From the NCBI GenBank assembly GCA_963514005.1, contig OY740809.1, forward strand, positions 26,970,001 through 27,034,000: 64,000 nucleotides of DNA, given 5' to 3'. Positions 13,078 to 42,772 of this stretch are shown piece after piece; positions within the stretch are counted from its first letter, which is position 1, and every line of letters begins with the position of its first letter. Source of the DNA: Raja brachyura (Eukaryota). The notes beneath the pieces were generated by a model. The model was not told the DNA's origin and made no database searches. It was given only the letters and a program-made list of their open reading frames with translations. The translations under genes and the position numbers were made by a program.

Positions 13078-13271
13078 AGGAAAGAACTGCAGATGCTGGT
13101 TTAAATCGAAGGAAGACACAAAATGCTGGAGTGACTCAGCAGGACAGGCAGCATCTCTGGAGAGAAGGAATGGGCGGCGTTTCAGATTGAGATACATTTC
13201 TGTACCGCATCATGCATTCCTTCTCTTGAGAGATGCTGCCTGTCCCGCTGAGTTACATTTTGTGTCTACCT
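13078..13271. mobile_element. Older fold-back PLE-derived insertion
   Basis: AAAGAACTGCAGATGCTGG... with imperfect inverted arms; TSD TGGAGTTAAT(C/G)AAT starting at 13064 and 13272. Confidence 0.8.
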
Positions 13272-13410
13272 TGGAGTTAATGAATGGCATGTAGGTAAAG
13301 TAATGTAATATCTTTTAATTTCCCCATTCCATCTACTAGCAGCTACAGAGTAAACCTGAATTATCAAATCAATTCCCAGAGCCTTGAACCCTGGACGCCA
13401 TCACACTCAC

Positions 13411-13618
13411 CAGGAGAAGGAGGTTGTATCTTTGGTTGTTGCTTTTTGGAATCAGTGGCTGCAAAGATGTCTGCTGGAGGATCTTCTCCTCGTTCAATCT
13501 TGCACTCAAAGGCAAACAGACACTGGATATATTGTTTCTTCAGAGAGCTGGCTGCACTGCTTGAAGTGCCCACATTCAGATTGGTGGCCAATTCGCGCCA
13601 TTTTTTGTTTTTATTCAC
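13411..13618 (-). CDS. ARID1A: ARID1A exon 12 (208 nt), C-terminal half of ARID domain
   Basis: [48 protein letters not shown]...QPPSP; gtgcag|GTG and CTG|gtgagt. Confidence 0.97.
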
Positions 13619-14034
13619 CTGCACAGAAAGAAACTTCTGTTTAATCGAAGGATGTTTTGGGGAATAACGTCGGGTAGTGTGGTGAGAAATACACAATTCT
13701 ATATTTATTATCATTTGGAATCTGAACATGGATCTTAACTGCCCCACTATTGAACACAATCAGAAAAAATCCCCTTTTCCACTCATCACCCAACCCCATC
13801 TTTTCTGCTACCTCAACTAACGATCCCTTTGTCAACACTGAAGATGCTGCCTGACCTGCTCAGTTTTTTCAGCCGTTTGTTTTTAATTCAGATTTTCAGC
13901 ATCACTTTTGGATTTTAATCTGAGTTTTTGATTTGCAGTTGGGTAATAATCAACTGTAGTTGAAAAACATTACAGCAACACCATTCCAATGCCCAGAATA
14001 CACATAAATGCATGCATCACAATTTAACCATCAG

Positions 14035-14312
14035 GCAAGGGGTACATAAGTTTGAAAACGCATACCGCCAGATTCAGGGACAGTTTCTTCCCAGCTACTA
14101 TCAGACAACTGAACCGTCCTCTCACCAGCTAAAGAGCAACCCTGACTTCCCAGCTATCTCATTGGAGACCTTTGAATTATCTTTAATCGGACTTTATTAA
14201 ATGTTATACCCTAATACCCTAGATTAATTATATCTGGACACTGTGGACAGCTTGATTGTTATTATGTATTGTTTTTTAGCTGACTGGATAGCAAGGATTA
14301 CAATAATAAACT
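14035..14312 (+). mobile_element. Rex-like LINE 3' end
   Basis: CAGATTCAGGGACAGTTTCTTCCCAGCT encodes RFRDSFFPA; UTR shared with 4735-4975. Confidence 0.65.
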
Positions 14313-39533: not shown

Positions 39534-39670
39534 ATACACCCCTCGGTTATAGTAGACAATCCGCAATTGTGGACCATCTCTTCTTTTCCCCCTGCCCCAT
39601 CCCCCCATGATCCGTTATAAGAGATGGTCCACAATTGCCGATTGTCTACTATAACCGAGGGGTGTATTAT
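39531..39670. mobile_element. 140-bp hairpin MITE
   Basis: 52-bp inverted arms 39531-39582 and 39619-39670 with 1 mismatch; TA|CACCCCTC...GAGGGGTG|TA. Confidence 0.8.
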
Positions 39671-39699
39671 CATTGTATAAATTGTTAGAAACAAACAAC

Positions 39700-39850
39700 T
39701 AGAGTGCTGGTTAATACACAAAACGACAACGTGCTGGAGTAACTCAGGAGGTCAGGCCCGAAACGCTACTTATCCAGGTTCTCCAGAGATTCTGTCCTGC
39801 TGAGTCACTCCAGCACTTTGCATCCCTTTGAATATTAACCTGCATCTGCA
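39700..39850. mobile_element. Degenerate fold-back PLE-derived element
   Basis: GTGCTGGAGTAACTCAG ... CTGAGTCACTCCAGCAC inverted pair plus GCATCTGCA tail. Confidence 0.65.
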
Positions 39851-42295
39851 ATTGTTTCTATAGCTGAACTTAGTTATGTAATAATTTGAAGGCAATATTT
39901 ATTGTAATTACAGGAATTAATTCATTTAATTTATGTATTCTAGTGTCAAAGGATTCAAGTGAACTCCAATTTATTAGATCTTGCCAGTCTCTTGCTCAGA
40001 GCGAGGGAAGCAGTTTTTGAACATTAAGTCAATGTGAAATCAGTTCTTCATAGGGATAAAAGGTTAACAGCATACACAAGAACTCATGTATAGAATTACA
40101 TTCAGATTTGTTCAATTCATTTATTCATATCCATCTAAAACCAGCATAGCAAATGGTCAGCAAACAGGATTTATAAAATTGGAGAAAGGTTTATCCTAAT
40201 AACATGGATTCTATTGGACTTTAAGCTTGGACTGGTAATATTATTTATTATTAGTTTAGCCAATCAGAGGTTTTATGTAGTTTAAAAAGGAAGGAGGAAA
40301 TTAAGGTAACATTTAAAGCTTTATAAGTTTAATGATTTACCTACCAAAATGTTATAGAGTTGCTCCATTTTCTCCCATGTGAAACCAGACAACCACTATA
40401 GTTTTTTAAATGAATGGCAAAACAAAAAGAACGTCAAGTTTAATGTAGGCTAGCCACATCAGACATAGGAAACATTTATAGGAGCTGTGAAGGAACAATG
40501 GGACTTCCCCATTTCAAATAAAAAACCTGTATAACGTGTAGTAATAGATATAAACATCTCTCTTCCCGTTAATCGGGAGGGCTAACAGGATGTTGTGTGG
40601 GTTGCCAAAGCAAAGGGGCAGAGTATGCACCAGTTGCACGAGGCACTTGACTTTAGAAAAGATATATTAGCCTGGAAATGGATGCAACCTGAAAAATAAC
40701 ACACCTAAGGATTTAAATTGTCAGTACATTGTATATACAGAAAAAATTATTAAACATTGGGAATGTGTAAAAATTTCCCAGTACTGGTGGAGAGTGCGAT
40801 CTTAATACCAGTCAAGAGTGAATCAAGAAATTCTGCTATACAAGTGTGCTGAAAATCGATTTCTCACTCCAAAACTGGAACACTGTATCTAATCCTGATC
40901 ATATAATTTTAGGAAAGTGAAGATTCTGGAGAAAGGGCAATATCATTTTACTGGAACAGTTCCAGCCGTGAGGGATGTCAGTAATAAGGGTGCACTACAA
41001 AATACTACATAATTTGCTCCATAAAACAAAGAACATTGAGAGAAGGTTAGACGTGAAAAGATCATGACCTGTTTCAGTAGTGAATAGAGGGAAACAGATC
41101 CTCACAATGGATGATTCAAGAAGAGATGAAAATAAAGTGTGAAGCAAGGAGATAAGGATAGAAAAGATGTAAATTGTGAAGCCAAAAGGAGGAATATAGA
41201 TGGAAGTGGACAGGAGAGGGGAGGGAGAAATAGCTTGAATCCAGATGGGGCACAGGGAATGGAAGGGCAGAAAAGGGGAGGGGAGATGGGAAGGGGGGGC
41301 AGGTTAGTCACATAAAATTGGAGAATTATTTTGGTTGGTAGCTACCCATGGAGAATAGATATCATTGTTGGTTGGGCAAGGTCAAGAGCCAACTCAAGAG
41401 TGGTTATTTGCCATATGCATACCAGGTATGAACCACAATTTGCTGCGGTTTTACAACACATAAGGCACCATTATGGCAAAAATTTAAATCTTCCAGCCAT
41501 AAAATGGCGACGGCAGAGAAGAATGTTGGGAATAAGGCTGTGTATGGCACCAAATTAAAAATGCTGAGATAACAATGCCGATTGGACATACTATAGTGCG
41601 AGTTTATTAACAAGGGGTGATTATAGTCAGATATGATCAAACGAGTTTCACTCATTATGCAGCTTTATTTCAGTGGAAAACAATTAAAAATGTACAGCAA
41701 ATGTGTTTTTTTGCAGTTGAAAACAAGATATCAATCTGCATTATGGGCAAAGAGTAAGGCTTGGCCATATATGACCATGAAACATTTGTAGAAGTTGATC
41801 CTAATATGTCCCAGGGTGCTTGCTCACTCCAAACACCATAAAGGGCTAACATATCAGGCCAGTGGTGGTAACTTGCATTTTGGCATTGCACAAAAAATAA
41901 AATTAACTCATCTGCAGTACATAGAGGCTAGATTGATTCACTAACTCTCACAAACGATCAAATCTGTCAGCGGATCTACGTGTTCAGTCAAGCAACCAAA
42001 GGAAGAGGAAGAGGAAAAAAAAGCTTCCAAAACAGCAGTTTATCTTCTAAAAAAACTGCAAACATCGTTCAGTAAAACCCAATATGCAAATGAGAGAAGC
42101 AGGATTATATGAGCAACATCTTAGTGTAGTTGGCTGTACGAATTCCTAAATATGTAATAACGGGTTCAACTTGATCAATTGAAGAACGCAAATTTCCATT
42201 ACCCTCTGCACTTCTACCACTCAACTTTACAAAAAAATATATAGAATTGAGAGATAAAGGGAGAGCTCCCTCAAAGTGGCAAGACAGTAGAGAGG

Positions 42296-42772
42296 ATAGT
42301 AAAGATGGTGATGGCATGCTTGCCTTCTTCACTCATGGCACTGAATATAAAAGTCAGGAAGTCATGTTACAGCTGTATAAAGCTTTGGTCGGACCACATT
42401 TGGAGTATTGTATGCAGTTCTGGTCGCCGCATTACAGGGGGGACGTGGAGGCTTTGGTGGGGCTGCAGGCGAGAGTCAGTAGGATGTGGCCTGGATTAGA
42501 GTATTTGCCATAAAGATAGATTAAACAATCTTGGGTTGACAAAAATACTGGAGAAACTCAGCGGGTGAGGTAGCATCTATGGAGCGAAGGAAATAGGCGA
42601 CGTTTCGGGTCGAGACCCTTCTTCACACTCGCCTATTTCCTTCGCTCCATAGATGTTGCCTCAACCGCTGAGTTTCTCCAGCATTGTCCATCTTCGATTA
42701 TCCAGCATTAGCAGTTCCTTCTTAAACAAAGTTGGAATTGTTTTCTCTGGGGTGTTGGAGATTGCGGGGAGA
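42296..42772 (+). mobile_element. CR1 LINE ORF2 fragment, interrupted by a PLE-derived insertion
   Basis: GMLAF...EYKSQEVMLQLYKALVGPHLEYCMQFWSPHYRGDV. Confidence 0.88.
42535..42721. mobile_element. Fold-back PLE-derived insertion inside a CR1 fragment
   Basis: Inverted arms; degenerate 14-bp TSD TTAAACAA(TC/AG)TTGG starting at 42521 and 42722. Confidence 0.8.

Follow-up and report, generated by a model that had tools for sequence, protein, structure and literature searches.

Hairpin insertions of a Penelope-like element in the skate Raja brachyura and their proposed two-strand origin

In 64,000 nucleotides of the genome of the skate Raja brachyura (GenBank assembly GCA_963514005.1, contig OY740809.1, positions 26,970,001 to 27,034,000 of the forward strand; the whole of this stretch is called the window below), we identified 25 copies, or arms, of a ~130-nt unit that begins with a hammerhead ribozyme core, distributed over 16 loci. 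Eight of the 16 loci (4.6, 13.1, 30.4, 31.3, 35.9, 39.7, 42.5 and 54.9 kb) are hairpins in which two arms stand head-to-head. Judging from the coding sequence attached to one copy, the unit is almost certainly the pseudo-long terminal repeat (pLTR) of an endonuclease-bearing Penelope-like element (PLE), and the hairpins are extremely 5'-truncated PLE insertions. The best overall explanation of their shape, to which we assign a probability of roughly 60%, is a two-strand target-primed origin, in which both nicked strands of the target prime cDNA synthesis on the element RNA.

Copies were collected by a profile search of the window, with a profile built from seven window stretches, which returned 26 matches at E<=5, 22 of them at E<0.001. 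The four weak matches (E 0.41-3.5) were left out of the arm set, and pairwise alignment supplied three further short arms, namely the left arms at 4.6 and 54.9 kb and an 11-nt stub at 28253-28263. Positions within the unit are counted from the cleavage site, the C of the GUC triplet being -1 (28784 in the reference copy) and the C of CUGA -28 (28757). A sequence-only reading of the same DNA had already pointed to at least 10 copies of the unit, many of them self-inverted; every position that it named was recovered, together with further loci at 13.9, 22.6 and 62.5 kb, and all inverted copies proved to be head-to-head.

The young arms fall into variant A (10.6, 13.1, 28.8 and 32.1 kb), variant B (28.5, 31.3 and 35.9 kb) and a B-like form (42.5 kb), and the remaining arms are older. 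An A arm and a B arm are separated by 9-14 differences in the 41-47 shared-core columns compared, and the arms of one locus are of the same variant, with 0/47 differences at 31.3 kb, one at 35.9 kb, four at 42.5 kb and 4/41 at 13.1 kb. Arm divergence overall is 0-25%.

A Penelope-like source element

The link to PLE coding sequence is provided by the copy at 28.3-28.9 kb. Upstream of the unit at 28.76 kb, the plus strand carries coding sequence for the C-terminal half of a GIY-YIG endonuclease; next come the 3' untranslated region (UTR), the ribozyme and the tail. The endonuclease fragment is 77% identical over 77 aa to a Leucoraja erinacea protein (P0001; E 1.5e-27) and has 447 relatives at E<=0.001; the best protein matches in the window are to Leucoraja erinacea (77% and 71% identity), Rhinoraja and Hypanus. 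A Pfam scan of the fragment itself gave 0 families; GIY-YIG was found in 6 of the 11 relatives scanned, and the relatives carry RVT_1 plus GIY-YIG. Because the unit is continuous with the GIY-YIG end, we take it to be the pLTR of this element. The earlier reading had proposed a PLE derivation, to be given up if the unit had no tie to PLE coding sequence, and the continuity with the endonuclease C-terminus supplies that tie.

In three relatives (P0022, P0083 and P0120; 44-51% identity to the fragment) the order is reverse transcriptase (RT), CxxC linker, GIY-YIG, and a zinc-finger-like motif lies between RT and endonuclease in P0011, P0022, P0078, P0083 and P0120; this part is missing from the window copy. 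A CxxC linker in that place is described as a mark of the Neptune and Nematis clades (PMC8557442), and a vertebrate survey lists Neptune, of the Neptune/Nematis pair, among the groups detected (bioRxiv 10.64898/2026.07.22.740005). The source element is probably a Neptune-clade PLE, a placement made through the relatives only, because tblastn with relatives of at least 230 aa found no RT remnant in the window, all 29 matches falling in the 28.0-28.5 kb bin.

The same copy has a layered history. A variant-B arm (28525-28651 including its target site duplication, TSD) was inserted into the older variant-A PLE, and the inverted stub at 28253-28263 is joined to the truncated 5' end of this PLE over a 3-nt overlap. 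At that end, ~30 nt of endonuclease coding sequence occurs twice in tandem (28266-28340), a duplication that looks as if it came from a backward template jump. The 3' UTR ends in an initiator-like YYANWYY match (28752-28758; the A, at -31, is 28754), and in the reference unit a CCAGC motif is repeated at +47 and +77.

Hairpin shape, junctions and the 5' wall

Arms end at the 3' side in two classes, at about +61 to +67 and about +97 to +104, and the gap between them is the tail of ~31-37 nt. A tail on one arm only had been claimed for the family; this holds for the four young hairpins (13.1, 31.3, 35.9 and 42.5 kb), and does not extend to the old ones, where both arms are tailed at 39.7 kb, neither is at 54.9 kb, and the copies at 4.6 and 30.4 kb are too decayed to read. 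Seven tail-less arms (10.6, the right arms at 13.1, 31.3, 35.9 and 54.9, 28.5, and the left arm at 42.5 kb) end at one narrow site, as a priming site would have it and not as random 5' truncation would. A direct repeat of 7-9 nt with a CCAGC core, its copies 24-30 nt apart, precedes each 3' end (28831-28837 and 28861-28867 in the reference copy, with equivalents elsewhere), and its flanks co-vary between variants. It is a candidate repeated protein-binding site, only suggestive because the shuffle control was mixed (8-21/300 for A arms, 0-1/300 for B and 42.5 arms, chance level for two old arms) and used spacings of 29-37, at odds with the actual spacings of 27 and 24 in the B and 42.5 arms.

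We compared the flanks of each locus with 399 random position pairs and confirmed the five TSDs of 14-15 bp reported before, three exact and two with 1-2 mismatches, at 5 of the 16 loci. Those at 13.1, 28.5, 31.3 and 35.9 kb were equalled or exceeded by at most 1 of the 399 pairs; for the 42.5 kb duplication the calculation returned an exact core of 8 bp, a tied result (p 0.025). In this comparison, similarity was at chance level for the 11 remaining loci. A TSD is present in 4/4 young hairpins against 1/4 young single-arm loci.

The hairpin junctions (Table 1) were computed by exact extension at 31.3, 35.9 and 42.5 kb and read by eye elsewhere. There are seven different junctions among the eight hairpins, which belong to at least three sequence variants, and the copies at 31.3 and 35.9 kb are joined differently in spite of a sequence difference of only ~2%. 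Thus, the hairpins were very probably made anew at each insertion, and a self-propagating hairpin family is unlikely. Of the two origins offered by the sequence-only reading, 'extreme 5'-truncation/inversion products' fits these data, whereas protein-free hairpin retroelements mostly do not; its proposed check, whether identical breakpoints recur, turned up within the window a single old pair, 4.6 and 30.4 kb. A template for the fillers at 13.1, 28.5 and 35.9 kb was sought within 500 bp, where nothing beyond 7-mers was found.

The inversion point had been placed in or next to the ribozyme motif. Both arms indeed end within -33 to +5 in six of the eight hairpins, with one arm at +27 (39.7 kb) or +43 (54.9 kb) in the other two. 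The 5' ends were examined in 23 of the 25 arms, omitting the 3.9 kb arm, which is cut by another repeat, and the 11-nt stub. Among the arms reaching each zone, 4/23 end between +60 and +6, 3/19 between +5 and -5, 1/16 between -6 and -16, and 14/15 between -17 and -33, the last arm continuing ~490 nt past -33. Counted by locus this 5' wall stops 11/12, with p about 1e-5 even at a five-fold background rate. The wall at the 5' edge of the ribozyme is real, because the UTR upstream has no second copy in the window (28260-28752 recurs nowhere else in it, the inserted arm excepted).

The GUC site is traversed by 16/19 arms, therefore most templates were uncleaved there and self-cleavage does not set most breakpoints. 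The earlier proposal that it does so was right about clustering at the ribozyme, but the ends lie mainly 17-33 nt upstream of the cleavage site and only 3/19 fall within 5 nt of it. The wall may instead mark the 5' end of the RNA, a reading that we hold slightly short of even odds. The ends of four arms are compatible with position -31, where the initiator-like motif has its A, and we offer an RNA start at this position as a suggestion only, because the motif is common. A downstream promoter element at canonical spacing was looked for by eye and showed a partial match only. In the anole element, RT starts close to the beginning of the open reading frame (ORF), beside the ribozyme, cleavage was dispensable in vitro, and no reads were reported to end at the cleavage site (PMC11167929). 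An mRNA starting just before the ribozyme would leave RT only ~130 nt to copy, which would explain the length and abundance of the unit without a separate non-autonomous element.

A 3' splice site at -30/-29 was considered as a cause of the wall and rejected: the arms that reach it share no foreign upstream exon, and four of them continue with genomic bases. An inhibitory stem between the ribozyme core and +8 to +23 is predicted, but it is not better than in shuffled sequences (z 0.29, 115/200) and plays no part in our explanation.

The minimal hammerhead is intact in 1 of the 25 arms (35997, plus strand), where the strict pattern CUGANGA, helix II, GAAA, palindromic pair and UH is matched; 0.01 such matches are expected per shuffled window. 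In the other 24 arms the core is decayed or cut. A helix I of 4-5 bp was not found, since about 2 bp can form beside the core in the reference copy, and the predicted folds do without it. An Rfam scan detected no hammerhead; its five matches at E<=1 are all below the gathering score, and they include sub-threshold microRNA matches on two hairpin copies. Three arms (32220-32229, 54927-54940 and 28620-28630) can be aligned so that each lacks the same 3 nt from the GAAGAAG run in its ribozyme core, a deletion that would reflect slippage or a variant template.

Two-strand priming and the alternatives

We propose that the GIY-YIG domain would nick both target strands 14-15 nt apart, the copied stagger becoming the TSD, and that each free 3' end would prime cDNA on the PLE RNA, at +61 to +67 or at +97 to +104. 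These two start sites, ~32 nt apart, would give one tail-less and one tailed arm, with the target end often pairing partly with the RNA. Both cDNAs would be antisense and would grow toward each other, and the repeat would therefore be head-to-head. They would usually cross the uncleaved ribozyme and end at -17 to -33, a stop most simply explained by an RNA start at the initiator-like motif, 3 nt before CUGA; with priming on the 5' pLTR of the mRNA, only ~130 nt could be copied. The two cDNA ends would be joined via a 1-3 nt overlap or a short filler, and extension of one strand only would leave a single arm.

Several observations make this two-strand priming the reading that we prefer, at the probability given above. 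At 31.3, 35.9 and 42.5 kb the arms are not nested, one having the tail and the other reaching further 5', which rules out for these copies a simple fold-back of one target-primed cDNA, the mechanism suggested by the sequence-only reading. The TSD at the tail-less end resembles the continuation of the RNA, with 25/45 matching bases against a null mean of 11.3 (p 5e-5), or 19/35 without the first two positions (p 4e-4); by end, 7, 6, 6, 3 and 3 of 9 bases match. The long PLE copy begins with an 11-nt inverted tail end, which we also count as support. Furthermore, the anole Poseidon protein, a predicted dimer, is reported to nick and extend both strands, and its two start sites bound the tail (PMC11167929).

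A number of points weigh against this interpretation. The nested arms at 13.1, 39.7 and 54.9 kb could also be made by fold-back, and nesting at 4.6 and 30.4 kb is unreadable owing to decay. The likeness between TSD and RNA is absent at two of the five ends (35.9 and 28.5 kb), and the anole enzyme primed in vitro without target homology (PMC11167929), unlike the skate, where three of five tail-less ends match at 6-7 of 9 bases. The breakpoint zones were picked after viewing the data, with old 5' ends read by eye to within 2-5 nt, and the initiator-like motif was chosen post hoc and is frequent (0.013 per nt). Variants A and B form groups in a tree of 16 arms, yet none of its branches is strongly supported. 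To these can be added the missing RT remnant, the junction that 4.6 and 30.4 kb have in common, the apparent nascent-strand fold-back at 28.5 kb described below, and a sample of one window with four young hairpins.

The strongest alternative is self-priming, in which a palindrome allows a cDNA, or an RNA template of antisense orientation, to fold back on itself, after which the endonuclease trims one tail and inserts the inverted intermediate. Palindromes found where inverted copies meet led to this proposal for rotifer Penelopes (PMC3846280), and the tail has been attributed to endonuclease-mediated resolution (PMC8557442). In our data, the loop belongs to the tail-less arm in all three non-nested hairpins, as it would if that arm were the first strand, and 8/9 junctions are readable with an overlap of at least 1 nt (p 0.007 against random joins), a count made partly by eye that allows a nearby mismatch at three old junctions. 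At 4.6 and 30.4 kb the arms meet in a small palindrome that immediately precedes CUGA, and the common junction of these two copies could reflect a hot spot there or an old master. In the 28.5 kb arm, 28609-28623 holds a 7-bp palindrome that is perfect, unlike its imperfect counterpart in the unit, with three changes in 13 nt in an arm otherwise diverged at 1/47; this looks like a template-switch footprint, and the perfected palindrome, of the kind expected from quasi-palindrome correction, looks like nascent-strand fold-back. We nevertheless consider self-priming unlikely. The overlaps in young hairpins (0-1 nt) are too short for it, stem II as the obvious fold-back site is used by 0/8 junctions, the resemblance of the target to the RNA at the tail-less end is consistent with priming at that end, and the two arm ends agree with the pair of RT start sites observed in vitro (PMC11167929).

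An independent non-autonomous family, a few hairpin masters being transcribed and reinserted whole by PLE protein in trans, is improbable. The common junction of 4.6 and 30.4 kb would suit it, pLTRs can mobilise passengers in trans (PMC3846280), and variant B has no attached coding sequence in the window; but the diversity of junctions, down to the nearly identical 31.3 and 35.9 kb copies, speaks against it, and the predicted folds of -104 to -185 kcal/mol would make poor templates. In addition, the anole enzyme needed RNA up to ORF nucleotide 172 (PMC11167929), which would lie beyond the tail and is absent from the copies. Still less probable is that ribozyme cleavage sets the breakpoints, one arm being copied from RNA already cut at GUC. 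The three arms ending at -2, +4 and +5 are slightly more than would be expected at the cleavage site (p 0.03, uncorrected), the loop at 35.9 and 42.5 kb amounts to one ribozyme core, as expected from one cleaved and one uncleaved RNA, and minimal hammerheads are described as acting as dimers (PMC4209133). This could concern a minority of arms at most, as no arm unambiguously ends at +1, the great majority pass GUC, and cleavage was not needed in the anole system (PMC11167929). Both the hairpin-family and the cleavage-guided fold-back readings are weakly supported. A miniature inverted-repeat transposable element (MITE) or foldback DNA transposon, suggested by short inverted repeats with TSDs, and an assembly artefact, suggested by the N gap beside the 30.4 kb copy, were rejected as extremely improbable: a PLE endonuclease runs directly into the unit, the inverted portion does not include the tail, neither length nor junction is constant, and an artefact would not result in arm divergence of 0-25% or TSDs at five copies.

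Taking two-strand priming further, the hairpins might record target-primed reverse transcription by a PLE dimer, with a 14-15-nt stagger, two CCAGC-marked sites ~30 nt apart at the mRNA 5' end, partly base-paired priming and run-off before the hammerhead, the minority GUC ends being the first in vivo trace of PLE cleavage. This complete scenario is speculative and we would not bet on all of it. If true, one mechanism would lie behind inverted pLTRs, one-sided tails and the mass of solo ribozyme-bearing stubs across animal genomes.

Relation to known elements and genomic setting

PLEs are already known to have truncated copies in inverted arrangement, tails on one side, solo pLTRs and minimal hammerheads, and the arm geometry is a useful new detail. 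PLEs with inverted pLTRs (Penelope of D. virilis, Pen2/Pen2a of A. vaga, Naiads) resemble the skate family in their head-to-head 5'-truncated copies, 30-40-nt tail at one end, TSDs, solo pLTRs and copy-into-copy insertions (PMC2377424, PMC3846280, PMC8557442). They differ in that the skate arms do not exceed the pLTR in length, the whole insertion being a hairpin of ~190-215 bp, in the TSD (14-15 bp against the 8-10 bp given for A. vaga), and in the long palindromes reported for such elements, which the young skate junctions lack. The origin of PLE inverted repeats and one-sided tails has been called unresolved (PMC8557442).

In Poseidon of Anolis (PAc), a hammerhead is likewise followed by two RT start sites that bound a tail, both strands are cut and extended, and uncleaved RNA is the main template (PMC11167929). 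Poseidon belongs to another clade, the relatives of the skate element having the Neptune-type CxxC linker, and the available text of that report does not tie two-strand extension to inverted repeats. The skate unit is like minimal PLE hammerheads in its core, the extra base before helix II, the G-C closing pair, the palindromic C-G in place of helix III and the dispersed single copies (PMC4209133); it differs in a helix II of 4-5 bp, a putative helix I of about 2 bp, and 24/25 arms without an intact core. The same work describes opposite-strand hammerhead pairs 100-700 bp apart in Schistosoma. Non-LTR retrozymes are also short, non-coding, hammerhead-bearing and pLTR-related, with TSDs >4 bp (PMC7229834; bioRxiv 10.64898/2026.07.22.740005), but are described as head-to-tail tandem arrays with canonical type I ribozymes (PMC7229834), whereas the skate units are single or inverted, with a minimal core; we looked for a tandem array of the unit in the window and found none.

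A different precedent is L1 twin priming. There, the second nicked strand primes a second cDNA, which leads to a 5' inversion inside the TSD, and the arms, which start from a variable internal site, are copies of neighbouring RNA segments with hardly any overlap. In contrast, both skate arms copy the same stretch from two fixed sites.

In the open-licence literature we found no account of this skate family, nor of two-strand priming as a source of PLE inverted repeats; the family is probably present in Repbase or Dfam. Most PLE copies are too long or too decayed to show both ends, while the skate insertions are short and complete, a span of 250 bp taking in the junction, the TSD and both priming ends. 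Given this, and a density of 16 loci in 64 kb, a skate assembly should hold a very large sample, which could separate two-strand priming from self-priming and reveal any peak at the cleavage site. On a practical matter, hairpin copies can be mistaken for MITEs or microRNA precursors in annotation.

Table 1. Arms, hairpins, associated PLE segments and target site duplications in the window (unit positions relative to the cleavage site; left arm before the stroke, where ordered)
Feature	Position	Strand	Details	Junction
Old tailed arm	3913..3985	-	interrupted by other repeat; sequence comparison	
Old decayed hairpin	4530..4647		2-nt overlap; read by eye	-33..-31 / -23..-21 (-31/-23, as at 30.4)
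Single tail-less arm, variant A	10586..10682	+	from -29; no TSD	
Hairpin, variant A	13078..13271		tailed arm antisense on +, 5' end about -17; tail-less arm 5' end -5..+4; ~20-nt filler between arms	-17 / about +4, with filler
Old partial arm	13836..13903	+	profile E 1.5e-7	
Old partial arm	22589..22638	+	profile E 4.7e-4	
11-nt inverted copy of tail end	28253..28263	-	11/11 identity to 28878-28888	
PLE GIY-YIG endonuclease, C-terminal half, 5'-truncated	28266..28536	+	protein similarity	
Single tail-less arm, variant B	28539..28637	-	inside PLE fragment at endonuclease stop codon	
PLE 3' UTR upstream of ribozyme	28652..28756	+	single-copy in window	
Reference unit (pLTR)	28757..28888	+	decayed hammerhead core 28757-28784, conserved body, tail to about +104	
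Old hairpin	30400..30568		tailed arm reaches N gap; read by eye	as at 4.6
Youngest hairpin, variant B	31332..31545		tailed arm to -22, tail-less arm from -27; 1-nt overlap; 0 differences between arms in 83 shared columns	-22 / -27
Single tailed arm, variant A	32103..32229	-	to -23 (or -28 with 3-nt deletion); no TSD	
Hairpin, variant B	35904..36095		tailed arm to +5; tail-less arm from -29, with intact hammerhead 35997-36024 (+)	+5 / -29
Old hairpin, both arms tailed	39685..39868			+27 / -11
Hairpin, B-like	42535..42721		tail-less arm to -27 (or -31, one mismatch); tailed arm from -2	-27 or -31 / -2
Old hairpin, both arms tail-less	54909..55022		left arm ~20 nt; right arm from about -31	+43 / -31
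Old tailed arm	62437..62562	+	from about -21; profile E 1.7e-6	
TSD 13.1	13064-13077 / 13272-13285		14 bp, 1 mismatch	
TSD 28.5	28525-28538 / 28638-28651		14 bp exact	
TSD 31.3	31317-31331 / 31546-31560		15 bp exact	
TSD 35.9	35890-35903 / 36096-36109		14 bp exact	
TSD 42.5	42521-42534 / 42722-42735		14 bp, 2 mismatches; read from sequence	

The repeat copies appear to be intronic in a host gene that is read from the minus strand and includes exons for an ARID domain at 13.4-13.8 and 15.4-15.9 kb; judging from its peptides, the gene is presumably ARID1A-like. The hairpin at 13.1 kb lies ~90 nt from the end of an ARID-coding exon. Such copies place long near-perfect double-stranded stretches in host introns, which could undergo editing or influence splicing. 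On the host sense strand no arm has an intact hammerhead, the intact one at 35997 being antisense to the gene.

Other repeats are found next to these copies or elsewhere in the window. A separate inverted repeat (39531-39670; 52-nt arms, 98% complementary, 36-nt spacer) adjoins the 39.7 kb copy, is unrelated to the PLE unit and is MITE-like. A 69-nt inverted pair (54098-54166 and 55157-55225; 98.6% identical, ~1 kb apart) encloses the 54.9 kb copy, with no obvious TSD. Further dispersed repeats, which we take to be LINE-like, occur at 34865-35325 and 60274-60764 and at 4006-4064 and 28999-29058, one of them cutting the 3.9 kb copy; a Pfam scan of the reading frame at 34.9 kb gave no match. Another dispersed repeat of ~240 nt (23476-23715, 30046-30287 and 5158-5289) is presumably SINE-like. 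Finally, a GC-rich stretch of ~800 nt (29250-30050) with a 31-nt inverted pair (29296-29326 and 29448-29478) and long G and C runs is probably another element.

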